A stretch of 41,866 bases of DNA. Source: Reclinomonas americana ATCC 50394. Taxonomy: Eukaryota. Every line of letters begins with the position of its first letter. Position 1 is the first letter of the stretch. Made by a program: the position numbers and the translations under genes. The notes beneath the pieces are model-generated. The model was given only the letters and a program-made list of their open reading frames with translations, was not told the origin of the DNA and did not search any database. The stretch spans positions 15,645 through 57,510 of the forward strand of contig PS015373.1 of NCBI GenBank assembly GCA_048213135.1. Reading direction: 5' to 3'. This document shows positions 2,474-41,866 of this stretch, piece after piece.

Positions 2474-4029
2474 GGCCTCGACAACGACTCCGGCACTCCC
2501 TTCCTCTACACAGAAGCTGTCGAAAGGTGGTCTCGGTCTGTACTCGGTGGTGGAGCGAGCGGCCTCTCTGTTGATCATCAACTCGGCGGTGAAGCTGCTG
2601 ACACACTGCCGACCGCTGACTCGTCGCCGTGTGGCGGAGCGCGCATGCTCCACTGCTCGGTGAAGGCGGCCGGTGGTTGTGTCGACGATTTCTCGCCGCT
2701 GCCGACTGCTGGTTTGGTGGCCAAGTACCCACAGACGAACGAGGTCACAGACGTCAATCGCCAGCAGCTGCCAGTTGCCACGCCGCAGCGGTATTTCTCT
2801 GTGTTGTTGTCTCCTGTTGTTCCCCAGGCTGGTGCTGCTGTGGCTGCTCTTGGTGCAGGTGCTCGCTTCCAAGTGGCCACTGATCCGCATGCCCCTCACC
2901 GCGCTGTTCACTCTAATCTGATGAGTGCTGCTCTCGGGCACGCTCTGAAGTTGGGCGTCAGTGTGGAAGTGCATCCGGCTACTGCTCCGATGGTGGTCGG
3001 ACAGCACTTGGCTGACGGTGGTGTTGTGTTTCCCTTTGCCTCTCGCTTCTTGCCTGCGATGTCACACTTCTACTCCAAGCGCCACATTGCTGGCTGGAAG
3101 GACTTGCGGAAGTGTGGTGCTTTCGTCGACTCCATGACGTGGTGGCTCAGGGCAACGGCATCAGCGAGAAGGAGCAGCGCTCCTTGTGCAAGATGCGAAC
3201 CAACTCCGTCGCGCTCAACAACAAGGTGGCGGTCATCAGCGGCAACCCGGGTGGCCCTGCCTCGCTGTGCCCGCTCTGTGGCAAGGAGTCGGAGTCGCTC
3301 GGACACTTGCTCAACGGCTGTGAAAAGCTGCAGGGCTTGTGGACGACGCGCCACGACAACGTGCTCGACGTTCTCCAAGCGGTTTTGGTGCGGTGCCCCA
3401 AGGTGGACGGTGTGGCGTGCCAGCTGCTGCGCGAGCGTGTCGATGCCGACCTGCTGCCAGCGCCGGCGGACATTGCCAACCACGCCAACTTGGCCAGGCT
3501 CAAGCCGGACCTCACCCATCTGGATTATACCAGAGAGGGGACCGGTGAGATCTGCTCGGTCCAGGTGGTGGAGTTCGCCAACGAAGACTCGGTCAAGTCT
3601 GCTGTCAACGGCAAGAAGGCCAAGTACGAGTCGTTGGTCAAGGCCATCAAGCAGAAGGTCGGCGATCAGGCCAAGGTCGAGCTGGTGGTGCTCCCTGTGA
3701 CCTCGATTGGCACGGCCTCGGCCTTGGTGTCGACTGGCCTCCGTCGTCTCGGCGTGCGCAACGTACGACAGTGCATCTCTCGCCTTTGCACGACAAGCTT
3801 ACGTACAAGTTACTCGATGTTTGTCCAGCGCTGCAAGGGTACCCGGGTGTGCATGGTGGCGCAAGGTCATTCGGTCGGCAATGTGCGTGCATGCAGTCAT
3901 GCACTGTCGGCTCGTGCGACTTTGCCAGATGTGCAGTCTGCAGTGCATACTGGCTGGCACCACCGCGTTTCCGGTGTCAAGACACTTTCCGTTCAGCACC
4001 ACCAGCTTGGAGCGCTGCAGCGCACTTGA
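2474..4029 (+). mobile_element. 3' part of an RLE-clade (R2/NeSL/CRE-like) non-LTR retrotransposon, frameshifted
   Basis: RT thumb-like FLY..KLSKGGLGL (about 2500-2540), W..L..CG...WWL, KMRTN, CCHC knuckle CPLCGKESESLGHLLNGC, RHD motif, restriction-like endonuclease KPDL...VEF...KKAKYESL. No introns. Frameshifts near 2510, 2640 and 3150. The RT core would lie in or beyond the gap 1980-2473. Confidence 0.9.
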
Positions 4030-12667: not shown

Positions 12668-15600
12668 GCCAATGACGGGGAATGTGCATCAGTTTTTTCT
12701 TGCTGGTTCTTCTTCACCACATGTTCGCACTTTACAATGTCTTCCATCTGTCGCCGTTCATTACCACTGTGCTCGATTACTGACTCCTCCTCCCACCCTT
12801 TGTCCCAGTCTCCGACGCGATGAGCAGATGCGTAGCGGTGAGTGTGCGACGGGAACGACTTGCTCGCACCGCGCTTCAACATCACCACGCCGCGAGTTTC
12901 TCACAAGCGATTGCAAGCGCAACTGGTGCCGTTGCTCTGGACGACGGGAACCGGTACCGCAAATATGCCACCCTTGTTGAGTCGCGAGAAGCACTGGCAG
13001 CTGCTGAAGCGGCATGTGGTAGTCGACCGCAGATCACAGAATTTGCACGGGCAGCCCATTCAACGGCAGCCGATCTGTCACGCTCAGCCACGTGTGATGT
13101 GGAGTCATTTGAGGAGTGCATGTATGCAGCGGAGAATGCGCTCGACGATGCTGCGTCTGAATTCATTTCTGTCGCCGTTCACACCGCCCGACAGTTTTGT
13201 CAGTCGCGACCGTCATCAGCTGGTGACGGTTCTGCCACATCAGCAGCGCCTCCGACGCCGCCGTCGTCTCAGCATGGTGTGCTGATGGAGAAAATCGCTG
13301 CCTCCAACATGCGGCTTGCGAAGCCGTCGCCAATGCAGGCACATCTCACTGCCGCCGGATTTGTCGACTACTTGCTGTGCACGGTCGTTGGAGTCCAGCA
13401 CGGATCAGACGGCGCAGCAGATGCAATGTACCACGAGCACGTACGGCTTGGATTGGAACGGTCACTGCGAGCGGCACTGTCGCATCGACCGCTGAACGCC
13501 ATCATCCCTGCCGGTTTGTGTTGACTCGGTGTATATATGTTGTTGCTTGCCTCTGCAACTAATAACATCATCATTTTTTGTTGCCAGAGCTGCTGGCGGA
13601 AGTTGCCAATGGTGGTGACGACTATGGCTCTTCGTTGCCTTGCAAGCTGCTGCGACAGCAACTTCCTGCGATTAACAGGCTTGTGCTGTTCGCCAATCTT
13701 CTGCGCCGACAGCTCCGGTACAAGTTCCGCACTCTTGTGCTTGCCGCCAAGAGCATAGCAGATCCAGTGGCGGACATCGACTTGTGCTGGTTGACCTACT
13801 TGGATGCACTGGCGAGCATCGTGCCGTGTACTCTGTCGGTCGACGGTGTCGTGCGCGTGACAAGTGGAGGAGTGTCAGCGCATTTGCAGATGCTGGCACG
13901 AGATGGCGAGAGGAACTCGAACGCATTCTCTCTCGGCTCGTTGTGTGATGAAACGACGACCATCGCACGCGAGCTGCTGCGCGTGAGAAACCTGCTCGAC
14001 AGCTGCATCCTATCCTTTTCGACATGTACATCTGGATCCACTGCGTCAAACGGAGATACTGGTGCAGCAGCAGGGTCTTCTCTGCATCTGTCGGTGTCGT
14101 ATCTGCGAGGACTGTTGTCGCGCATTCGATGTGATCAATCACATGTACAGCCAATGCATGTCGATGATGCCGACACCGACGATGCTGGTCATGCCAGTGC
14201 AGCAGGTGTTGGTGGAGGTGAGACTGGTGTTGTCGTCACTTGTTGTGCATGTATCGATCACTGTTGCATGCATCGGTCTACCACCAGCGGTGTACTTATT
14301 CATCGTCTCTCTGCAGTCACTGCAACAACTCAAGCCACGTCGACAAGCAGTGCACGCATGCGTGCGACGGCGGCTGCCGGTGGCGTTGGCGATTGTGATC
14401 ACAGACTTGACCGTGATGGGAGGTCACGTGGTGACCGAGGTGTGTATCACATTTGTGGATCGTGCGCTGCGCACAGCTTGTTTGTTTGTTGACACACTAT
14501 CTTTTTTTGATTCGCTCGCAGTTGCGAGAGACGACAGTGGTGGTGGTAGCGGTGATGATGGGCGCCAGCTGCACATTTCCGCCGTCGATTTGATGTTCTT
14601 CTTGCACGACGACTTGCCTCGGCTGTGGGTGGCCCTCCTGGGCGACACCACTGCGGATCCAGATGCTGATGCAGTCCAGCTCAACAAGCTCAGTCTGGAC
14701 ATCGATTCTGAGGAGAGACAGCACGTGGTTCACGCCTTTCGCCGCGTTCAGTGGGCTGTGCTTGGCGGCGCTGGGACACAATTTTGGAACTCTCCTCTTT
14801 CTACTGCCACCAACAGTGACGGTGAGCGCACCATATAGTGTGCTTGGTCAGTTGTTGGTTGCATGCATTGCTCATCAGAATGCACCTCTAGATGGCGCTG
14901 CAGATGGTTGTGCCTCCAGTTCCATGGCATCGGCAATGCGCGACCATCATGCTGCAGACATCGAGGACTTTATGGATGGCGTCAACGCACTGTGTGATCG
15001 ACTGCATGCGCAGTCGTCGGCGCCAGCTGCGGCGGCAGATTCACTACTATCGACTGCTGCGGCATCGCAGATGCCATCTCGGTCATCGACGACTGTTGAC
15101 GCGTACCGAGCCTGTGCACTGGTGACTCGAAGGCTTGCCGTTACACTGAGCAAGGCGGCACATGATGCAATGCGATCACTAGAAAGAACTGGTCCGTGTG
15201 ACTGACCGCCAATGGCAAGCTGATTGTGTTTGTGCTGACTGTGGCGCTGACCTTCTCATTGCACAGAATTTGGCGATCGATTCAAGTGCTGGAAGCAACC
15301 GGCCGCGGCATCACAAGAGGTTCTGCAAGCTGACGCAGTGGCGGCAGCTCAATCAGATGGCGACATAGGCACGCTGTACATGTGGCTTTGGAGACCTGAA
15401 CTGATCGCACACTCCCATTTCACCGTGCGAGCGGCGATGGACGCTGCTGCTGCATCCACCTTGCCACCATCAGTGTGCGACTGGACGCTGCAGGAATATC
15501 TGTGCACGGTTGCGGCAATCGTCGATTCACAATTCATGCTCATGCCAGATGGTGGTGGTGATGGTGGTGGAGTCGAGGAGAAGGAATGGCTGACCTCAGC

Positions 15601-16156
15601 ACCTGCTGATGACATGCTGCCACTAGTACTTCCACCGGCTCGAATAATTGACTGCGACGGCATCGTGCTGACGACGGCACGTGCTTATCTTGTGGGAGTC
15701 GAGAACGACATCGATGCGTGTGGGAGTCGAGACGGCGTCACGGTGTGCGCACTGCCGCCCTGTACTCAGAATGAGGATGACAAACAGGTTGCTATTACGC
15801 GCCTTCGAAACTCCTATGACCGCTTGTTTCGGATGTGGACAACACATCGTCTGCAATTGGGACCGGCGTCCTTGCTGCAGCGCATGCAGCCACGTTCCGC
15901 ATCGGTGGCCACGACTGCTGCCGCTCTACCACCATCGCCTGATGTTTCTGTTATTATCGATGGAAGTCGAATAACTGTACAAGTTCATGCCGCGGCTGAG
16001 GGTGAGGGTGAGGGTGACGGTGGCGGTGACGGCGATCATGAGGGTGAGGCGTCCTTGGTGCAGCACATGCAGCCGCGTTCCGCATCGCCTGATGTTTCTG
16101 TTATTTTCGATGACGCTCGAAAAGTTCATGCCGCGCGCGCGGCTGAGGGTGAGCTC

Positions 16157-16187
<31 letters not shown>

Positions 16188-19100
16188 ACGGTGACGGTGA
16201 CGGTGACGGTGTTCATGAGGGTGAGGGTGCCGGTGGTGCACCACGACGCGATAATTGTTATATGATACGCGAGTCGCTTGGGAGACTGGCGGATGTGTGC
16301 TCTGTGTTCATCGACAAGGCGTCAAGTCGTTTACACGACACGGGCACCGACACTCAACTGCAATCCGGCGGATCCACTGCGGAGTGTGGTTCCACCGCTA
16401 CTGAGCGCATGCGGTTGCGCTCTCGTGTCACCGACTCTGATCATGATCAGCAATTTGCGCTGCGAGTGCTTCTACCTGAGGCCGGTTGGCTCGCATGCTC
16501 ATCAGTGTTGGTGCGCACCGCACATCAACTTGCGCCACTCTTCTCTGCTGCGGCGGGTCATGAAACGTCGACACTGTTTGCTGCTGAGGAGGAGAAGTCT
16601 AGTGCGCTGCTGGATGCACTGCTGACGTCGGGTGCCAGCTGCGACATTGATCACCGCCACCGTATCTTGAACTGTGGCGGCCGCGGTGCCGAATGCACCA
16701 GGTGCATGCTGAGGACGAAGATTGACGGGTTCACGGCCGAAAAAACAGCGTTGAAGGCGTTATCAGATCACATCAGGATACTTGATGCTATAGCATGTTG
16801 CGTCGTGCATCACCACAAGGAAAAGAGAAGGGCAGACAGATAATAGTTTTTTTCAGGGAGCATGACAGATCTAGAGTCATGCATTCTGAGACCGAGGGAT
16901 GTCTCACCCAACTGTAATGCTTGTTGCAGGCGCTGTGCAATCGGAACGCAGTACTGCATTGCTGCTTGGCAGGCAAGACGCCCTCGGCGTGAGCGTACAG
17001 GCCGCAGCTGCAGGACACAGACACTTGCTGCCGGCACACGGCAATTGCAATGTCACCAACCAACACCCTCTGGATTTGCGACATGCGAGACTCATGCATA
17101 TGGAAGAGGGTAAGTGTGTAAGTAGAATGGGTTTCCTCTCACGGTAGTTGCTGTACTGTTGTCAGCGTGAGCACGCTCTGCTGTCGCCTCGCACTCTTCA
17201 GTGCGTTGAGCACTTAACTATGTATTTTTCTCCGTGATTGCATTCTAGTTTTCTGTTCCGGTCGCTTGCTGCACTTCCTTGTGTCGTCTCTGCAGCTTCC
17301 ATGTGTGGGGTGGAGTCAATAATAATTCTCTCGTCGCCCTCTTTTCTGGTGTCCCTCTTCCTGCAATGCTCGTTGCAACTGACAGTACGCATCATGATCA
17401 GTTCACGAATCGCTGCTGCGATACACGAACAGTTTGAGCTCGAGCATTTTGACACCAGTGCACTGGTGCACTGGTAATCGTCAGCTAGAAGTTGTGCATT
17501 CTCTTGAACAGCGTTTAGTTGCAGAAAGAAAGCACATGAGATTTGCTGGCGATCTCTGGTACGCTGCGATGATTCTCATTGCTGTGGACGGATCAGAGCG
17601 AGTTTGTTTTCCACGTGCACATCCGTTGTCATCAGTTCTGTGGGTTGTTCTGTGGGTTGCGTGCTCAGCATCTCCCTCTCTCTCTCGCTCTCTTCTCGCT
17701 CCCTATCGATGGACTGCCTTTCGCACCGCCTCTCTGTTAGCTGAATCATTCTACTTGCGCAGTCACGAAGCCGACGAGCGTGGTGGCAGGCCTGCGGCAT
17801 GTTGCCTTCACGCAGTCCGAGCAACTCATCCGGTACCTCGTTACTACCAGAAACGAGCACCGCGGCCGGTACCGGGCTGCACATACACGTGGTGGCGCCG
17901 AGGATGACCGCGATGGCCACGCTGACAGCAACAGTGGTGTTGACCCAGCGAAGCCACCTGCCATGCTCGCGTCGATGCCGCCGATCGCGACGTCGATTTC
18001 AATGGAGCCAAAAACCGATCATCAACACTACTTCGGGGCGAGGCGGTCGTGTCGAAGATATGGTGAGACTATCAACAATGAGCGAGTACGGTTGCGATCA
18101 CTTTGCTCATTGTCCTCATGTCCCAGAGTTGCTGAGGGCACGGCGGGGTCTCATTTCCATGGTAACGTGGCTTCGCAATCATCATTCCGTCCGTGCTGAG
18201 GTGTCGCCTGCAGCCGCGCTTTCGGGCGGTAGTCGAAGGCAGCGGCGAGGTCGTCGACACCGGCGACACGGCGGCGGTGGTGGTGGTGGTGGTGGTGAAC
18301 CTGCTCCTGTTGCCGATCCCGGTGCTGCTGCTCCTTCTGCTGCTCCTACTGATGCAGCCACTGGTGCTGGTGCTGCTCCTGCTCCAGTTGTTGTCACTGG
18401 TGCTGCTGCTGCCGCTGTTGCTGCCGCAATTGCTTCCGCTGTTGCTGCCGCCGCTGCAGGTGCTGCTGCTGGTTCCACCACTGGTGCCGTTGCTGCAGCT
18501 GGCGGCGACGACGACGACGATGATGATGGTGGTGATGTCCACATGCACGCGCCTGACTGCAGCAGCGATGATGGCAGTGGCGACGACCATGGAATCATGC
18601 ACGTCGATGGCAATGGTGATGGCGGTCGGCTTCTCGATCGGGGTGTCCCCGTTGCTCTTATTGTGGACTGTGATGGTGGGAGTGAGAGTGGTTCAGCAGC
18701 TGCTGATGTCATGCACGTTGATGGTGATGGTGATGGTTGTGGTGGTGGCGCACCGCACATGTTCATGCATGACGACGTACACACGCACACCGAAGAGAGA
18801 GTTGAAGGCAATGCTGGTGCCGATGGATACGGTGACTGTGGTGGTACCGGTGACAGTGGCGCCGGCTGTGGCGTTGGTGATCTGACCGTGGTGCCCGGGC
18901 CCGCCGGCATTGAGGAGGGTGGTAAGAAGGGTGCAAGTGCATCGGCTTCTCCGGCGACTGAGCACTGCCCCTGCTGCTGTTCGTGCACGTGGATGAGCGT
19001 GTTCAAGGATTCCGACTGTCTGGTTTGCGGGCTACCATTCACAGAGTGCCGTGGGAGGCATTCACGAGTGGAGAAAGCCTGTGGGGTGTGGAAGACTACG

Positions 19101-20440
19101 GACGAATCGAGATGCTTATGTGGGCTCGACAAGGGTATTCGTTGCTATGTATCCGTGGCCACCGCTGGTGAGTTCAATTGCACTGCTCTCTTTCTCCCTT
19201 CCTCTCTCTGCATTTTGTTATCTGTGTCGAGTTTCCCCATGGCTACCACCGACTTCCTCACTGTTCGTCTCTTTTTCTTTCTCTTTTGTGTCTCTACAAC
19301 CTCACACAACCTGCCGTTGTGTATATTGATATTCATGTCCCATTCCACTCTGCAGGCGGCAATGTCGGCCGGTGGGAGATTGTTTATTTTGGTGACGGAT
19401 TCGCCGAGAAGTGCATTCTTCCCGTGCTGCGTCAGCAGGCTCGGTTGCGACGCATTCTTGGTGATTTCGGAGGTCTCGTTGACAAGGGTGTTCGCAAAAA
19501 ATACGAGCGTCGACTGGCGAACACCACCCGCAAACTGAGAGCGAAGCGCTACAACAATGCGCGCAACTTTGTGGACCAGTTGCGTAACAGTCGTTGCTCC
19601 ATCCTGTTGCTGTTGACGTCTGCGGGTACTGACGCGCTGTGCATGTGCGCGCACGTGAAATAATGCAGGGTGGTGGTCGTCCACGCTGTGGTGGCGGATC
19701 CCAACTTCTCTGCCTCGATTTCAGACATGTCGCAGCGAAAGAAGTTCGTCGCAGTCGGCGACGATGGGCTGGCGGTGTTGGAGCGACTGCTCAGTGTCGA
19801 CAACGTGATGAAACTGCAGTACTCTGGATTCGGCGACCAACGACGTGACATGAAGTCAGTGGTGCGTGCGTCTCCTCCTTGCTAGCAGGCCGATATCGAT
19901 CGCAGCAAGCGGCACTTACCCACGCAAGCACGCTCTCTCTCCTTCTGCGCGCGATCGCTTGCAGGAAGCCAAGGCACGAGTGTGTGCACAGCACGATGCG
20001 TCGTTTGCTAGATGGGTGCGGAGGGAGGTCAGCGAGGCCGGCTCAACTTCCCGCTGCGTAGCGTGCGGCAGGTGGCGCAAGGCTGGCCCGAAAAAGGAAC
20101 TCGTCTGCAGCAACACCGAATGCCCGTTGCACAACGCACCCGTGCCTCGCGACGGAAGCTCCGGTTTTACCATCGCACTGCACAGTCTGAAGGTGGTGGA
20201 TGTGTCGCGCCTGGTGGAGGAGAAGAAGGACGATGATGCCGACAAGGGCGGCAAGAAGGGTGGCCTCGGTGGCAAGAAGGGTGGCCCCGGTGGCAAGAAG
20301 GGTGGCCCCGGTGGCAAGAAGGGCAGCAAGACGGGTGGCACGGTGGGCAAGAAGAGTGGCAAGACCGTTGGAGGGAGGAAGCGTGAGCGCCCTCTGTCGT
20401 CGGAATCAGCATCTGACTCCGATCCATCAGAGAAGGATTC
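4221..20440 (+). CDS. Fanzor2: Giant multi-exon Fanzor2 (IS607 TnpB-like) protein, about 3,800 aa, 3' end in gap
   Basis: Phase-compatible GT-AG exon chain: 4221-4496, 4601-4739, 4900-5146, 5226-5627, 5707-5799, 5884-6147, 6231-6458, 6552-6737, 6806-7036, 7116-7352, 7424-7848, 7973-8125, 8196-8372, 8483-8602, 8688-8913, 9022-(gap)-9804, 9886-(gap)-10416, 10506-10799, 10895-11032, 11121-11444, 11529-12206, 12809-13513, 13588-14217, 14317-14439, 14522-14821, 14892-15191, 15267-16631, 16930-17109, 17763-18062, 18127-19167, 19356-19578, 19669-19861, 19965-20440+. It needs one extra base in the G10 run at 6367-6376 and continuity across two N gaps. Confidence 0.72.
7622..8913 (+). CDS. WED/REC-like N-terminal module of the Fanzor2 protein (sub-region)
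   Basis: Ordered motifs resembling IS607-TnpB/Fanzor2 N-termini: VVAARIANESQRTICGFWRNAC (cf. RixPxxeQkxxLxxW), LRVFPTTLKTIAARRY (cf. vPxxikxxA, 7986-8009), ISKFRASSRKKCVWIQVD (cf. kFRSrKxxxxxxi, 8218-8265), then beta-strand-like exons. Matched from memory of the family, not by alignment. Confidence 0.6.
9562..9619 (+). repeat. (CCA)n coding repeat (poly-Pro)
   Basis: About 19 Pro codons inside an exon of the giant gene. Confidence 0.95.
12466..12668. repeat. Intronic (GTT)n microsatellites
   Basis: GTT tracts at about 12466-12512 and 12630-12668 in the 602-nt intron 12207-12808. Confidence 0.9.
15865..16226 (+). repeat. In-frame direct duplication of ~180 bp within an exon
   Basis: Copies 15865-16047 and 16048-16226, both ASLxQxMQPRSAS..PDVSVIxD..VHAA..EGEGEGDG..HEGE. 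Confidence 0.9.
19110..20190 (+). CDS. RuvC nuclease plus C4 zinc finger of the Fanzor2 protein (sub-region, 4 exons)
   Basis: Spliced product CGLDKGIRCYV...EIVYFGDG...LRQQARLRRIL...RKLRAKRYNNARNFVDQ...VVADPNF...DMSQRKK...VEAKA...EVSEAGSTSRCVACG...LVCSNTEC...PRDGSSGFTIAL. RuvC-I Asp 19128-19130, alternative Glu 20034-20036, Cys at 20055/20064/20106/20121, RuvC-III Asp 20151-20153. Introns 19168-19355, 19579-19668 and 19862-19964. Confidence 0.9.
20247..20322 (+). repeat. 21-bp coding tandem repeat (GGKKGGP/L) in the Fanzor C-terminal tail
   Basis: ggtggcaagaagggtggcccc, about 3.5 copies, followed by the basic stretch GGRKRERP. Confidence 0.9.
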
Positions 20441-20593
20441 NNNNNNNNNNNNNNNNNNNNNNNNNNNNNNNNNNNNNNNNNNNNNNNNNNNNNNNNNNNN
20501 NNNNNNNNNNNNNNNNNNNNNNNNNNNNNNNNNNNNNNNNNNNNNNNNNNNNNNNNNNNNNNNNNNNNNNNNNNNNNNNNNNNNNNNNNNNNN

Positions 20594-23500
20594 AGCAGCC
20601 ACGTCGTCGATCACGCTCCCTCCATCGCAACAAAGACGACGATCGGCAGTGGAAGGCGTGGATCGAGAGCGAAGAAGATCGACTGGGAACTCGTCGTCAT
20701 TACGATGACGACGACGACGATGACGACGATGATTACGATGATGATGATGATGGCAGTGATCGCCGTGATGGAGCAAGCGACTTTGATGATGGCGACGATG
20801 ACGATGATGATGAGGGCAGTGATGGTCGGCGATTTCGTCGGCTGTCGGCGACACTGGGACGAGTGTCGTGGGACGCCAGCGAACCCGATGAGTACGCCAG
20901 GAGGAGAACATCGCGTCGGCGATCGTCGGCAGTGCCGGAGTTGCCGTCGTCGCGGGGTGGCAAGCGAGGAGGAGGAGCGAGAGGGCGAGAGAGCGAGTGG
21001 ATGCAGGCAGTGAGCCAGGAGATTGCCAAGGCGCGCGCGGATATGCATCTCACCATCTCGCGCCTCAGCAACGTGAATGCCGAGTTGAGGGAGCAGCAGG
21101 CGGCCGCTGATCATACGGTGGCGCAGTTGCGGTCGGAGCTGGCCGACCGAATGGGGGAGGTGTCGGCGCTGAAGGAGCAGTTGTCGCGGCGGGCGCCCAG
21201 CGAGGAACTGACGAACAAGGGTTCGATGGTCGTGCGAGCGGGAGTGGTGGTGTGTGTTGCTTTAGTTGACTGTTTGCCGCGCAGTTGTCGACTTGCAGCG
21301 GGAGCTGCGGCAGCGTGATCAGCACCTGCAAGACACCGTCTCCAAACTTCAACACATGACGCACCAGTATCGACAGGCCGACGACGACAAGCAGATTGTG
21401 CAGAAACGATTACGTGAGGCGCAGGAAGTGATGGAGACGCTGCGGCAAGGTGTGCATCTCTGTCTCTCTCTGTGTACTTTGCCGGTTGGTTAACGACAGG
21501 TGTGATTTGCAGAAAAGGAGACGCAGCTGATCACCGTGCAGCGCTCGTACGAAACGAGAGTCGCCGAGCTGCAGAGCGGACTGAGTGAGCAAATGGCGAT
21601 TTGTACGCGCCAAGAGCTCGAGTTGAAACAGGCACGATCGCAGCTGGCCGGCACCAATTCGCTGCAGAAACAGTATGCGCTGGCGCAGGCACAGTGGGGC
21701 GTTCGGTGGGTTTCTGTGACAAACGCCAGTGTGGCCTGTGATGGGTGCTGTCTCACATTGCAGGCGACGCGTGCAACAGAGAAAAGGAAAATGAGGAGCA
21801 CATTAATGCGCTGCAGCACGAGCTGAAGCAACTGGCGGTGCAGAAAGATCAAGAACTGCGCGACGTTCGAATCTCGCTGGGTGCCGAGGTGGAGGCGGCG
21901 CGCAAGGATGCCGAGCGTCGGTTCGACATGCTCACATGCGTCTCCGCCAGCACAAAACGACGTTGGTTTTCTCATCTTCTATCCCATGTCGTGCGATGTG
22001 ATGCAGGGTGCGGGTGGCCGAGGAAATGCTGCAGCAGGGCACATTGCGTGCCGAGCAACGCGTGCGGGAGGTGGAGCTTCGTGTGCGCAAGGAGGCCACC
22101 AAGATCCAGTCGCTGGTCACGAAATTCAAGGGCAAGGAGGAGGAGCTGTTGGCGCTCAAGGAGGAGCGTGTGCGTCTGGAGCGGCAGGCGTCGAGCATGG
22201 AACGCGACGCACGGGCAGCAAAGAAAACCATTGCCGAGTTGCAGACGGAGCTGGACGAAGCAAGCAAGGTACGCGCACGCGTGTGTGTGCGTGTGCGTCC
22301 TCATTTGTTGACACTCGGTGCAGAAATGTGCAGAGGAAAGTCGCGAGGCAGAAAACTGCCGGACACGTGCGCGCCAGGCTGAGTCGCAGCTCGAACTGGT
22401 GCGCGAGCGTGACAACAGCCGGCTGGCGCAGTTGCAAGAACAGGCGGCCAATGCCACTCGCGAGTTGCAGGTGGCCAACGAGCACGCCGCGCAGCACCTG
22501 GCCGAACTGCAGCGGGAACACGAAACACGGACGCGCGACCTCACCGCCTCGTACGAGCACCGTTTGGAGGAGTCAGCGCAGCGCGAACAGACTGCATTGT
22601 CGCGCGCCAAGCGCGCCGAGCGGCGACTGAAGACGCTTGAGGTGTGTTTTGCCACGCGTGTTTGTGTGGTTTCCTCATCTCAACGTCTTATCCCACGCCC
22701 CGTGACAGTCACAACTAAAGGAGGCCGAAGAGGAGCAGGCGCGCAAGCAGCAGCTGATTGACGAGGACCGCGTCTCACATCGGCAAGTGGTGGAAGGCAT
22801 GAAGCAGCGACTCAACGAGGCCCAGTCACGCATCCAGACACTGGAGGAGGACTTGCGCACCGCCGAGGCCAACCTGGAGGAGGCGGAGACGTGGAGGCGA
22901 CAAGTGAAGGAGCGGCAACAGAGCGAGGAGCGTGCGCAGCGCGAATTGCAGCGCTTGCAACTGGAGTTGACACGCACTGTGGAGGCTGGCGAGGCGTTGC
23001 AGGCGCAGCTGGCGAACGCCGACAGGTATGCGGACTCTGTCATCGCGCAAGTATTTTGACGATTCACTTACATGTGACTGGCAGTCGCATCAAGGAGTTG
23101 GAGCAGGCGCTGGCGCACGAGACCAAGCTTCGCGGTGAGGTCGCGCGCAAGAACACGGAGCTGGGCACGCGGTGCTTGCGGGTACGCGGCGTTTTTATCG
23201 CTTGAGGTGGGTGACATGCTCACCGCACCGAAAATTATAACGTGCAGGCGGAGGAGAAGGCGCAAGAGGCTGCACTCGTTCTGGAGGCGTTGCTCAGCGA
23301 GACACGCAGCCATGCATCGCCAGTTGCGTCCATCGCAATCGATGTTGACGCGGACAAATACTGATCTCCCTCGCCTTGTGCAGGCCTTCCTCAAATCGTC
23401 GCTTCTCCTAAAGGAGCTCATGCCACCCACCGAGCCAGTGTCGGTACTGGTGGGAGAGCCGCCCACCTCCAAAGTCACGTCTGTCAAGAGTGAGGCAGCT

Positions 23501-24166
23501 TCGCCGGTGCGCTCGTCGCCTCCAAAACCACCACGGCTGGCGTCGCCGCCGAAACGAACCGCAGCGCCGGCGGTGATCTCCAGTGTGACCTCGGCGGCCG
23601 CAGTGGTTGCGACAATACCCGTGGAACCGGAGGAACAGCAGAGTTCGGCTCGAGCACTGCAGAGTCGAGAGGAGCAGCGTCGCATCCTGCAGGAGCTGGC
23701 GCAAAAAGCCAACCTGACTCGCCACGCCGACTCGCACGTGTCGCCCACTGCTCCGGCCTCGGTGACTGCAGTGGCAGGCTCACCGCAACGCTCACCGGCT
23801 GCTGGCAAGGCAGGGTCGCCAGGTCATCGACAGGCGCAGGCGCAGCAGCAGCCAGCTGGCGTCGACTCTGACGGTGACGCCGATGACCAGGTGTTGTTTG
23901 ATGCGGAAGCCGAGCAACGATCCACCAAGTCCGCGCGCCGGTTGCCTTTCAGTGCCGGATCGAGTGGCAGACGACCGTCGCACGCTGACGCCTCCGATGG
24001 CGACGAGGGCGACAGTGAAGGCGACAGCGAGCACGATCGTACTCGACGGGGTCCAGTGCGGCGGCGCTCACTGGAACGGTCATCGCTTCTCGGCACGTCA
24101 GCGCAGCGCCGCTTGAGTGCAACATTGCGCGATTTATCACAAGTGACCGAGCGCTCGGTGTGTTGA
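20594..24166 (+). CDS. Multi-exon long coiled-coil protein with acidic N-terminal and Ser/Pro-rich C-terminal regions; 5' end in gap
   Basis: Successive E/Q/R/L/A-rich heptad-like exons (e.g. EQRVREVELRVRKEATKIQSLVTKFKGKEEELLALKEE) separated by short GT-AG introns; TGA at 24164-24166. Family not recognised. Confidence 0.75.
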
Positions 24167-31017: not shown

Positions 31018-32424
31018 TCACCACTGAGCAAGCTTGTCTTCCCGCGCCAGTTGCCCGTCCTGCATGCATACAATGTGTGAGTTACGACGTGCGGCAGGAG
31101 GAATTAACTGACGGCAGATACCTCGGCCTCGCCACAACCGTACACTCGACCGGCATCTGCACCACCACGTTTTTAGCTTGCCTTTTCTTTTCTTCTGCAG
31201 GCAGAACAGCTGCTCACCGTCCAGGAATATGGTGGTCTCGGCGCCGGCAAACGCCTTCAGAATGAGCTTGCCTTCGAAGATTGGCTGCAGTAACCGACGA
31301 GGCAACAGTTCGTCTTCGCTCGAATCGTGCCCGAGACGACCCGACAGCCCACGCCCCCACGTAAACACTGTTCCGGTGGCACTAATGGCCACCGTGTGCT
31401 TCACACCGCACGAGACTGCAATGATTCTCTCGTCGGCGATGCGCATGAGACGCGTTGGCTCCCACGCGGCGTCCTCCGAGCCGAGTCCCAGTTTCCCACA
31501 CACTCCCGTGCCCCACATGTACAGGCCTCCATCGTCTGCACACGAGCTTGTTAGTCACGTGCTTGGAGGCCGTCGTCGCTGACAGAACGCAACTCGAAAT
31601 GGCGGCCGAATGCAAGTGCCCTGCCGACACTTGCCGACATCGCTTGTCGCGTAGCGTCGGCACCAGTGAGAACTCCAGCCGGTCGTCCTCGTGACCCAGA
31701 CCAAGCACTGCGCGCATAACAGAGGGCGTTGGAATCGCTCCAAACACAAGCAACGACCAACGCTGCCCTCGTCACACACACACACACACACACACCTCCA
31801 CCAATCCCATTGCCGCACACGCGCACATTCGAATCTTCCGTGATAATGATCGTGTGTGAGTAGCCGCACGCCACCTGTGTCACCCGCAGACCGCCCAAGC
31901 CGATCGTCACGCGCGTTGGAATGCGACGCGTATCGCGATCGCCGTGTCCGAGTTTCCCACGATCGCCTGTCGCACATGAGCCAGCAGCGACCGCCACATT
32001 GCAAGCAGCAGCACAAACCTTCTCCCCACGTAAACAGCATGCCCTCCTCACTAATGCACGCCGTGTAATCCTAACAGCACACATGGTGAGTCTGCGGTCA
32101 CGCTTGTCTTGCATTAGATCTCCATCGTGCACCTTGCCAGCGGCCACTTGCCGCACGGTGACTCCCAACAGAGACTCCACTCGTGTGGGCTCCGTGCGAC
32201 ACTCAAAGTCGCCGTGTCCAAGCTGATACTCCAGTCCCTCACCCCACGTGTACACATGACCGACCTCTGCGCGATCAATCACTCAATGCACATCTCTCGC
32301 GCACATTGGCGTGCAGCAAGAGAGAGAGAGGAGACTGACCAGAGAGCGCCACACTGTGTGTTGGCCCGACGGCAATCTGTGTGAATCGCACCTCTTCCTC
32401 GTTGCCGTACTCTGTCGTGTACAT
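31018..32424 (-). CDS. RCC1/BLIP-II repeat beta-propeller protein
   Basis: Repeats QIAVGPTHSVALS, VYTWGEGLEYQLGHG, LFTWGEGDRGKLGHG, QVACGYSHT, QVSAGHLHSAA, LYMWGTGVCGKLGLG, AVSCGVKHT, VFTWGRGLSGRLGHD; ATG at 32424; 3' end approximate. Confidence 0.92.
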
Positions 32425-40080: not shown

Positions 40081-40426
40081 GAGTGTGTGTGTGTGAGAGA
40101 GACGAAATCGTCGCAAATTGGTCAATCACTTCTCTTGCGCTTCCGCAGCGGCGGGGGTGTTGTTTCTCTTAGTCCGTTCTTGATGAGAAGAATGGTGACG
40201 CCGCGTCGGTGGTGACTCGAGCACACGCTGCTCTGCTGAGGATTGCTCAGTCACTTTGAGTCGGGCATCTCTTCACTCCACCTCTGTGAGGTGCGTTGAC
40301 GCAGTAGCCCACGGTGTCTGCAGCTGTGTCTCACGCCTCGCATTCACCTCTGCAGCTGGCCATGGGCAACAAGCCAGCGCGAATTTTTGGTTGAAGGCGT
40401 GGTGCTCTCAGTTTCCTTGCCTCACT

Positions 40427-40476
40427 ATGAGCGCAGCATCTGCTTCGGCGTCATGCACGAACCAGTCGCGCGTCCA

Positions 40477-40507
<31 letters not shown>

Positions 40508-41196
40508 GGCACTGCGAAGGATGATTCTCACTCATCAACAACCACGACAGTCACCTCTTTCCCCGAGAGTGCCACTGCGCCGAAGGAGACTGCATTGCTC
40601 AGTCCATCAGCGGCAGCTGGCAGCCGTGCGACCTCCCGCAGACGACGTGCAACGCCCCACTTTCGTGTGCCTCACGGATCTGGGGTCGATGATGACGAGG
40701 TGATGTGTCGCCTGCAACACTGGCTCGAGACAGACGGCCGGGCCACCGAGCAACAGGCGGATCACACTTTTGTTGTGCGGCGGACCACGATTGGTGCGTT
40801 TATGTGTTGTGTGATGATCGTCGTGTTGTGGCAGACACTTTTTGTTTACACAAGTGGCTCTCTCTTTCTCTCTCGCTGCACAGGCAAGCCACCGCCGTTG
40901 AAGAAATGGCGACAAAAGTGGCCAGAGGCTGTCGCGCAGACTGGCGGCCGTGCAGTGGATCCACGCGAGTTGTTGCGAGGCAGCCGGTGTGCGGAGATGG
41001 ATGGGCAGATTTTGGTCGCACTTGCCAAGGAGTACGTCACCGGCGTGATCAAGCCAGAACAGTTTTCAGCCGCCCTCTGTCACCTGCAACGGTCACTGGC
41101 CAAGTGCGTGGTCGACGGCACTGCGGTGTCTGTGGAGACTGTGCCTCTTCTGCGTGTGCTACCGAGGAAGAGACGTGACCCGTATCGAGAACGAGC
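40427..41196 (+). CDS. Hypothetical Arg/Ser-rich protein, copy 1 (3' end in gap)
   Basis: MSAASASASCTNQSRVQRRRRRRRRRSG...RLQHWLETDG...RRTTI, an intron at about 40794-40883, then GKPPPLKKWRQKWPE... Confidence 0.55.
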
Positions 41197-41428
41197 NNNN
41201 NNNNNNNNNNNNNNNNGCTTGGTTGGAAACTGCAATTTCTATCGATATTCTGCATGTTTTGCACTGCATGCAGCAACAGTGATCTTACATGCTCACTCAT
41301 CTTTGACTGCCATGCAGGTCCAGCGTTGGCGGTGGTGGTGCGCTCTTGAAACGAAGTACAAGACCACATTTGCTCTCCGAAATTTTGACTGTAGGCGGGC
41401 GTGGTGCTCCCGGCTTCCTTGCCTCATG

Positions 41429-41866
41429 ATGAGCGCAGCATCTGCTTCGGCGTCATGCACGAACCAGTCGCGCGTCCAGCGACGACGACGACGACGACAA
41501 CGCAGCGGCACTGCGAAGGATGATTCTCACTCAGCAACAACCACGACAGTCACATCTCTTTCCGAGAGTGCCACTGCGCCGAAGGAGTCTGCATTGCTCA
41601 GTTCATCAGCGGCAGCTGGCAGCCGTGCGACATCTCGCAGACGGCGTGCGAAACCCCACTTTCGTGTGCCTCATGGATCTGGGGTCGACCATGACGAAGT
41701 GATGCGTCGCCTGCAGCACTGGCTCGAGACAGACGGCAGGGCCACCGAGCAACAGGCGGATCACACTTTTGTTGTGCGGCGGACCATGATTGGTGCGTTT
41801 GTGTGATGTGTGAAGATCATCGTGGTGTGGCAGTCACTTTTGGTTTACACAAGTCGCCTCCCTCTC
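41429..41866 (+). CDS. Hypothetical Arg/Ser-rich protein, copy 2 (runs off window)
   Basis: Paralogous first exon with the frame preserved and the same G|GTGCGT donor. Confidence 0.5.

Follow-up and report, generated by a model that had tools for sequence, protein, structure and literature searches.

We describe a locus on the plus strand of a 41,866-nt stretch of contig PS015373.1 from Reclinomonas americana ATCC 50394 (assembly GCA_048213135.1, contig positions 15,645 to 57,510). This whole stretch is called the window, and all positions given below refer to it. The locus appears to be an intron-split eukaryotic gene or gene remnant, whose last recognisable exon (exon 4) would represent the zinc-ribbon and RuvC-III end (TNB) of the TnpB superfamily. 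The exons that precede it seem to be arranged like the remaining RuvC domain and to have diverged beyond statistical recognition. Our preferred reading, to which we assign a little less than an even chance, is that an intron-bearing gene contains a RuvC/TNB module derived from TnpB. The active site of this module would not be rearranged in the manner of the Fanzors; the module probably lacks the RuvC-I Asp and the RNA-binding lobe, would not work as an RNA-guided nuclease, and may be either decaying or co-opted.

Similarity of exon 4 to TnpB

Judged by sequence comparison, exon 4 is the only part of the locus that is demonstrably TnpB-like. We compared it by hhalign with two profiles, a narrow one made of 120 relatives of an IS607-associated TnpB from Lactobacillus crispatus plasmid NZ_CP083390.1 (L001:1463-2755; hereafter the L001 family), and a broad one made of 29 non-redundant sequences. 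The latter were drawn from 91 sequences, that is, 84 open reading frames (ORFs) from plasmid and viral loci that matched our own TnpB profile and seven of the 120 relatives. Against the narrow profile exon 4 scored 46.9 (Prob 92.6), and none of 100 shuffles in which every Cys was kept in place reached this value (maximum 23.4). Against the broad profile the score was 27.6, again reached by 0 of 100 shuffles (maximum 27.1). In pairwise and family alignments, the residues found identical in exon 4 are ones that do not vary within the family (S, T, R, C, C, G, C, N, C, P, N, R, D). Its zinc ribbon and RuvC-III read E-x6-CxxC-x13-Cx4C-x9-D, and it shares with the family a specific second knuckle, Cx4C-P-x-[YH]-N, followed nine residues later by R-D.

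Database searches pointed to the same domain. The sole NCBIfam match was guided_TnpB (NF040570; E 0.065), in which residues 21-63 of exon 4 lie on profile positions 339-379 of 389. Searching 7.3 Gb of plasmids by tblastn returned eight records, the two best both at E 0.04, and one of these two is the C-terminus of a TnpB adjoining an IS607-family transposase. In the ESM Atlas, two of the top three clusters carry PF07282 (Mucoromycota and Nucleocytoviricota) at a score of 0.90, a level that 4-10 in 100 shuffled proteins also attain. Among the solved structures searched with phmmer, Cas12p ranked fourth of 12 (E 0.74), matching at its C-terminus and in register. By these comparisons, the nearest detectable relative is the IS607-associated bacterial and phage TnpB family. 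The first-pass annotation of this DNA had taken the C-terminal exon for a zinc ribbon of TnpB/Fanzor type with a RuvC-III Asp, and this view is borne out by NCBIfam, the ESM Atlas, tblastn and hhalign.

A zinc ribbon might also resemble TNB by chance or convergence, in which case the locus would encode a lineage-specific, Cys-rich, low-complexity protein unrelated to TnpB. Each single database match does fall below its own significance threshold, Pfam is silent, shuffled proteins can attain the ESM Atlas score, and the N-terminal part gives no significant score. Nevertheless, four independent libraries give the same domain in the same register, Cys-preserving shuffles never reached the real hhalign score with either profile, the matches include invariant positions other than Cys, among them the R-D of RuvC-III, and the motifs upstream are collinear with those of TnpB at spacings like those of the references. 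We regard an unrelated origin as very doubtful.

Other searches with exon 4 were negative. The word-indexed search of 5.8 billion clusters yielded no match at near or longer lengths (for longer proteins none at E<=1 among 122 candidates, and at near length no candidate), and the scan of viral contigs gave no match. One 20-residue match from the metagenome scan (locus L092) lies antisense within a 638-amino-acid ORF on a short contig and was rejected. An AlphaFold2 model of exon 4 alone, computed without an alignment, had a mean predicted local distance difference test (pLDDT) of 47.9, which is too low for use. As for the L. crispatus plasmid itself (200 kb), the guided_TnpB family is matched nine times on it; seven of these matches exceed the cut-off, and one of the nine has an internal TAA.

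Proposed gene model and candidate catalytic residues

The gene model comprises four exons and three introns (table 1). All three introns are GT-AG and join in phase, and exons 2-4 display a coding-like GC content by codon position. The frame of exon 1 has been open since 17745, 18993 being its last in-frame ATG; Pfam found nothing in this exon 1 part. For intron 1 a second phase-1 donor is possible (GTATTC at 19135), which would place GLDKG beside GNVGRW and leaves the hhalign score unchanged.

The course of intron 2 is disputed. In the form that we favour, donor 19584 would be joined to the acceptor TTTCAG ending at 19724, creating a His codon at the junction (C plus AC) and removing both VVADPNF and a TAA at 19661-19663. 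This acceptor is preceded by a pyrimidine tract and by a CCAAC about 21 nt upstream, an arrangement resembling, by eye, one intron of an RCC1-repeat gene in the window. Donors 19590 and 19593 joined to the same acceptor are likewise in frame. Taken over all models, other possible 3' ends of exon 2 are 19589, 19592, 19605, 19611 and 19617. In the rival form the intron ends at 19668 and VVADPNF remains coding, the frame then being kept only by the weak donors GTTGCT (19606), GTTGAC (19612) and GTCTGC (19618). Splice signals alone exclude neither form. A single plus-strand frame, with the TAA as its one stop, is open from 19172 to 19885; it takes in exons 2 and 3, the disputed intron 2 between them and the 3' end of intron 1. 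Read-through or reassignment of this TAA instead of an intron was set aside; it adds about 47 residues without a counterpart in TnpB.

All strings named in the first-pass annotation are present on the plus strand where it had placed them. It had also proposed that use of the GTAACA donor would lead to a stop. Joined to the acceptor at 19668, this donor does yield LRWWSST... followed by stops, but the proposal was too narrow, since the same donor keeps the frame when the intron runs from 19584 to 19724.

Table 1. Coordinates of the gene model and of the motifs discussed, in window positions
Feature	Position	Strand	Remarks
Exon 1, 3' part	18993-19167	+	last in-frame ATG (18993) to donor; Cys-rich; contains GLDKG
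GLDKG	19122-19136	+	Asp codon 19128-19130
Intron 1	19168-19355	+	GTGAGT...CTGCAG, 188 nt, phase 1, 72% pyrimidine; in-frame join
Exon 2	19356-19583	+	starts (G)GNVGRW, ends FVDQL; GC by codon position 0.63/0.40/0.61
(G)GNVGRW Asn	19361-19363	+	AAT codon; candidate RuvC-I position
FVDQ	19568-19579	+	sequence
GTAACA	starts 19584	+	donor
Intron 2, preferred model	19584-19724	+	GTAACA...CCCAAC...TTTCAG, 141 nt, phase 1; in-frame join
Intron 2, rival form	from 19606, 19612 or 19618 to 19668	+	in-frame joins; VVADPNF stays coding
VVADPNF	19688-19708	+	coded in some splice models only
Exon 3	19725-19861	+	LAVLERL (19769-19789), YSGFG (19820-19834); GC by codon position 0.64/0.31/0.73
LAVLERL Glu	19781-19783	+	codon; candidate canonical RuvC-II Glu
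Intron 3	19862-19964	+	GTGCGT...TTGCAG, 103 nt, phase 0; in-frame join
Exon 4, TNB-like part	19965-20201	+	alternative-position Glu, CVAC, CSNTEC, RuvC-III Asp; similarity to TnpB
VSEAGSTSRCVACG	20028-20069	+	contains CVAC 20055-20066
Alternative-position Glu	20034-20036	+	E-AGSTSR-CVAC, 20034-20066
CSNTEC (CxxxxC)	20106-20123	+	second zinc knuckle
PRDG	20145-20156	+	RuvC-III Asp codon 20151-20153
RDGSSGFTI	20148-20174	+	sequence
Exon 4, continuation	20202-20440	+	Lys/Gly-rich KKGG repeat tail, then Ser/Asp/Glu-rich stretch into N gap 20441-20593

From the tail of exon 1 to exon 3, the RuvC-I/II part is collinear with TnpB by alignment, and its similarity is not significant. Local hhalign remained collinear over about 200 columns and placed the LAVLERL Glu on the canonical RuvC-II Glu, the invariant E313 of the L001 family. 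It paired LAVLERL with the family's IVVENL, SGFG with SMFG, S-T-S-R-C with S-T-Q-R-C, and the R-D of PRDG with that of RuvC-III; VVADPNF, where present, fell in a gap. At RuvC-I, the broad profile put the GGNVG Asn on the Asp column, and the narrow profile put the junction Gly there, with NVGRW matching the family's NVGHF. With mafft --add, the LAVLERL Glu occupied the canonical column in two of four runs and was four residues off in the other two. The whole spliced core scored 48 with the narrow profile, collinear over 197 columns, compared with a shuffle maximum of 23.1 (0 of 60 reached the real score). Global hhalign with the narrow profile aligned end to end all three of our new splice variants and an alternative-donor variant, and none of the three that retain VVADPNF, but its behaviour over these seven variants was erratic, and mixed with the broad profile, so that we give it little weight.

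Spacing was measured against two references, the L001 family (D222/E313/C366/D411) and the Fanzor2 protein ApmFz2 of Acanthamoeba polyphaga mimivirus (D324/G416/E467). In the new splice model, the distance from RuvC-I to the canonical RuvC-II position is 93 residues when counted from the GGNVG Asn and 108 from the GLDKG Asp, compared with 91 in the L001 family and 92 in ApmFz2; the GLDKG Asp thus lies 15 residues upstream of the in-register position. The canonical position and the alternative Glu are 50 residues apart (51 in ApmFz2). From the canonical Glu to the first Cys there are 57 residues (53 in the L001 family), and from this Cys to the RuvC-III Asp there are 32 (45 in that family).

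These alignments are weak, and the assignments at RuvC-I and RuvC-II that they suggest are provisional. Glu is probably present at both the canonical and the alternative RuvC-II positions, and the RuvC-I residue may be either the GLDKG Asp or the GGNVG Asn. The canonical position would most likely be held by the LAVLERL Glu, the second Glu happening to stand at the alternative position of the Fanzors. The RuvC-III Asp would be retained; that of RuvC-I would either have been displaced to GLDKG, which lies too far upstream, or have given way to the Asn of GGNVG. Such a protein would presumably be incapable of RNA-guided DNA cleavage, and the locus would then be a copy in decay, or else a module co-opted for nucleic-acid binding or for a structural role. 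The module may be contained in a larger protein rich in low-complexity sequence, possibly with a coiled coil.

A different reading had been put forward in the first-pass annotation, namely a rearranged triad of Fanzor type formed by the GLDKG Asp, the alternative Glu and the PRDG Asp, with the inert Pro of VVADPNF at the canonical position, in an RNA-guided nuclease or binder. It is in print, in the part of the source that was available (PMC10530073), that Fanzors and some TnpBs are recognised by Pro or Gly at RuvC-II combined with a Glu farther downstream. Moreover, the Glu that precedes the zinc finger stands exactly six residues before the first CxxC, as at the alternative position described in the accessible part of PMC10711439. 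VVADPNF remains coding with each of the three in-frame donors that pair with acceptor 19668. Judged by eye, introns of about 50-60 nt are in keeping with this organism, as are weak donors of GTT type and the branch-like sequence TACTGAC, and the neighbours in the ESM Atlas are TNB clusters from eukaryotes and giant viruses. In the splice model with exon 2 ending at 19605, the GGNVG Asn and the VVADPNF Pro are 92 residues apart.

The Pro itself, however, is poorly placed. It precedes the alternative Glu by 77 residues in all three splice models that retain it, compared with 51 in ApmFz2; hhalign leaves it in a gap and uses the LAVLERL Glu instead; and it would be intronic if intron 2 runs from 19584 to 19724. 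In the same models, the GLDKG Asp and the alternative Glu are separated by 184-188 residues, beyond the x(120,160) of the Fanzor pattern as given in the excerpt of PMC10711439. DPG is absent from the spliced models, and the second knuckle reads Cx4C-x9-D instead of CxxC-x(4,8)-D. Searches of the locus and window brought up neither WED/REC nor a transposase, transposon ends or an RNA family. The alternative Glu and the RuvC-III Asp of the proposed triad thus stood, the Pro at the canonical position did not, and RuvC-I is left to one of two residues. We consider a rearranged Fanzor improbable. Between an active nuclease and an impaired binder, also raised at first, the sequence leans to the impaired form, because RuvC-I may be Asn and WED/REC was not found.

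Returning to a TnpB-derived module that is not of Fanzor type, a number of results weigh against it. The hhalign score of 46.9 is in part a selection effect, since the narrow family was chosen as the best tblastn match. The NF040570 match reached 12.5 bits, below the cut-off of 100, and the second tblastn match at E 0.04 was rejected as noise, lying out of frame inside a 490-amino-acid ORF. Pfam returned no family for five pieces of the locus and the exon 2-3 read-through. For the RuvC-I/II part alone, shuffles reached the real score in 21 of 100 cases with the narrow profile and 6 of 100 with the broad one in a first test, and in 26 and 5 of 100, respectively, in a second. In a third test none of 40 shuffles did so with the broad profile; for the narrow one the counts were 13 and 10 of 40. 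A position-specific scoring matrix of the RuvC-I block showed no offset above the null, hmmsearch with our own TnpB profiles found nothing above shuffles, and the whole spliced core scored only 27.5 with the broad profile, for a shuffle maximum of 25.0. RuvC-I placement by mafft --add was unstable (GLDKG in two of four runs, GLVDKG in the other two). The 18 codons from 19670 to 19723, in the frame that includes VVADPNF, have a coding-like GC content (0.67/0.39/0.72), a point that also speaks for the rearranged Fanzor, and an intron 2 ending at 19668 is plausible given that the introns of the RCC1-like gene of the window, read by eye, are short (about 52-62 nt) and their donors weak. Finally, the locus was an orphan in all searches run.

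Searches with the upstream exons were of little help. Exhaustive phmmer with the exon 2-3 read-through (TAA as X) against 1.84 billion representatives matched only P0002, a 958-amino-acid repeat protein, in five stretches, and this match was judged spurious. Among solved structures, exon 2 and the exon 2-3 read-through found only irrelevant weak matches in phmmer, and exon 2 had no usable match in the ESM Atlas.

The orphan status would also be expected if the locus were a dead pseudogene, an old TnpB or Fanzor fragment from which no protein is made and whose apparent introns reflect decay, or whose 19584-19668 splice ends in a premature stop. The TAA at 19661-19663 is a lone in-frame stop between two stretches of one frame; a join from donor 19584 to the AG that comes first behind the branch-like TACTGAC causes a frameshift and stops; most of the domain has no detectable conservation; the N-terminal lobe was not found in a profile test of low sensitivity over 14500-19200; and no true relative was found among the 1.84 billion representatives (exon 2-3) or the 5.8 billion clusters (exon 4). 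Yet all three GT-AG introns have an in-phase solution, coding-like GC patterns are kept in the exons, the frame is open for at least 158 codons from 19965 into the assembly gap at 20441, and the family-invariant residues of the zinc ribbon and RuvC-III are preserved. On balance, a dead pseudogene seems unlikely, though it deserves serious attention.

Surroundings of the locus

With two N-terminal TnpB profiles, no WED/REC signal was obtained from the 77 segments translated across 14500-19200, the best matches being on the opposite strand; the sensitivity of this test is low, since profiles of this kind miss the RuvC part as well. There were no flanking inverted repeats around the gene in 16800-21400, and within the window neither a paralogue of the TnpB-like gene nor an IS607 TnpA-like sequence was found. 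Searches for tRNAs and for Rfam families gave zero matches across the window, and the region that follows RuvC-III is an open frame of KKGG repeats. Five minus-strand ORFs beneath the locus matched no Pfam family, and no alternative gene was found there.

Upstream, the plus strand from 17745 to 18900 holds a low-complexity run of about 385 codons, rich in Gly, Ala and Asp and open on both strands. This long ORF may be non-coding, considering that GC at third codon positions is only 0.39 upstream of about 18900, compared with 0.65-0.68 in reference exons. Downstream, the tail of exon 4 contains 21-nt repeats at 20247-20356. One copy of a unit of GGCAAGAAGGGTG type (translated as GGKKG) precedes the TnpB-like part (18916-18933), and four copies follow that part (20245-20337). 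Directly past the assembly gap, the plus strand from 20596 to 24166 carries a run of acidic and then coiled-coil exons with only weak, sub-threshold Pfam matches; in the preferred reading these exons may be linked to the TnpB-like module as parts of one larger protein.

The window has a GC content of about 0.55-0.6 and includes eight N gaps, as in draft eukaryote-like DNA. The HECT, RCC1-repeat and Sas10/Utp3 genes that it carries are split between reading frames. The RCC1-repeat gene, on the minus strand at 31560-32140, apparently has four very short introns of about 52-100 nt, derived by eye from the repeat consensus and without RNA. Their donors are weak (GTGCAC, GTTTGT, GTGTGT and GTTGCG), and one intron contains a (GT)n run. 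Introns down to about 52-62 nt occur in this gene, with a branch-like CTAAC, CTCAC or CCAAC lying, by eye, 13-24 nt before the AG.

Two further features were recorded. A tandem duplication of about 385 nt (40396-40780 and 41398-41779) is 92-93% identical between copies spaced about 1 kb apart, and it copies part of an open frame with an Arg-rich, Ser/Thr-rich N-terminus. On the plus strand, a 337-amino-acid open frame at 3016-4029 has a sub-threshold match to zf-RVT (E 0.0028; 18.7 bits, cut-off 27.5), the zinc-binding region of reverse transcriptases, and may be a retroelement fragment.

Meaning and comparison with known systems

If the module is real and expressed, a TnpB-type RuvC/zinc-ribbon core survives in a eukaryote outside the defined Fanzor pattern, without DPG, with Glu at the canonical and alternative positions and with a different second knuckle, apparently stripped of its RNA-binding lobe. 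This would bear on the number of times that TnpB entered eukaryotes, and on whether dead TnpBs are reused there as they are in bacteria. Should the locus be merely a decaying copy, it would be an ordinary transposon relic, and a caution that reading motifs across unverified introns can misplace catalytic residues.

A bolder version of the preferred reading would see here a eukaryotic, intron-bearing descendant of a non-Fanzor IS607-type TnpB, recognisable by its canonical Glu and Cx4C knuckle, that lost WED/REC and the RuvC-I Asp and was co-opted within a large low-complexity and coiled-coil host protein. We hold this version to be a long shot. If true, it would be a counter-example to the view, stated in the accessible part of PMC10711439, that canonical-Glu relatives of TnpB in eukaryotes are nothing but contamination from prokaryotes.

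Compared with TnpB in general, the candidate falls below the cut-off of the family model, as noted above, but its canonical Glu lies as expected about 50 residues upstream of the zinc finger. Where RuvC-I of TnpB reads Asp, hydrophobic, Gly, the in-register residue of the candidate is Asn or Gly, depending on the profile. The L001 family is closer. Apart from the second knuckle and the R-D that follows it, the two share S-T-x-R-C-x-x-C-G, NVG[HR][FW] after the RuvC-I position, and similar distances from RuvC-I to RuvC-II and from the Glu to the first Cys. On the other hand, identity is only about 31% over 74 aligned positions, at the C-terminus only. The zinc-ribbon loop of the candidate is 13 residues shorter, its RuvC-I Asp is not in register, WED/REC went undetected, and its gene is interrupted by introns and set in a eukaryotic context in which no IS607 transposase lies close by.

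The candidate resembles Fanzor2, and ApmFz2 in particular, in its intron-containing setting of eukaryote type, in the Glu that stands exactly six residues ahead of the zinc finger, and in its spacings of 93 + 50 (92 + 51 in ApmFz2). Its ESM Atlas neighbours are fungal and giant-virus TNB clusters, and its basic, Lys-rich tail could serve nuclear import. In contrast to ApmFz2, the canonical position would be held by Glu and not by Gly or Pro, and RuvC-I would read NVG or DKG rather than the DPG of Fanzors. Furthermore, CxxC-x13-Cx4C-x9-D departs from the Fanzor pattern CxxC-x(12,18)-CxxC-x(4,8)-D, as quoted in the available part of PMC10711439, no WED/REC, guide RNA or transposon was detected at the candidate, and phmmer found no significant sequence similarity to the solved Fanzor chains. 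By its sequence, then, the candidate shows the alternative Glu and lacks the other Fanzor features tested, that is, DPG, Pro or Gly at the canonical position and the CxxC-x(4,8)-D knuckle; it also stays below the Pfam and NCBIfam cut-offs.

The last system to be considered is that of the TldRs, nuclease-dead repressors of bacteria and phages that resemble TnpB. In the literature searched by titles and the beginnings of abstracts, no nuclease-dead or domesticated eukaryotic Fanzor was described, although one could still be in print. The comparison with TldRs is by description only, from partly available sources. TldRs keep RNA-guided DNA binding, whereas the candidate is eukaryotic and no guide RNA or WED/REC was seen; the only hint of a similar loss is the possible change from Asp to Asn at RuvC-I. 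What the candidate may share with them is the idea of a TnpB descendant without RuvC catalysis that is kept for another role, and a co-opted non-Fanzor TnpB, if true, would be the eukaryotic counterpart of the domestication of TnpB in bacteria.

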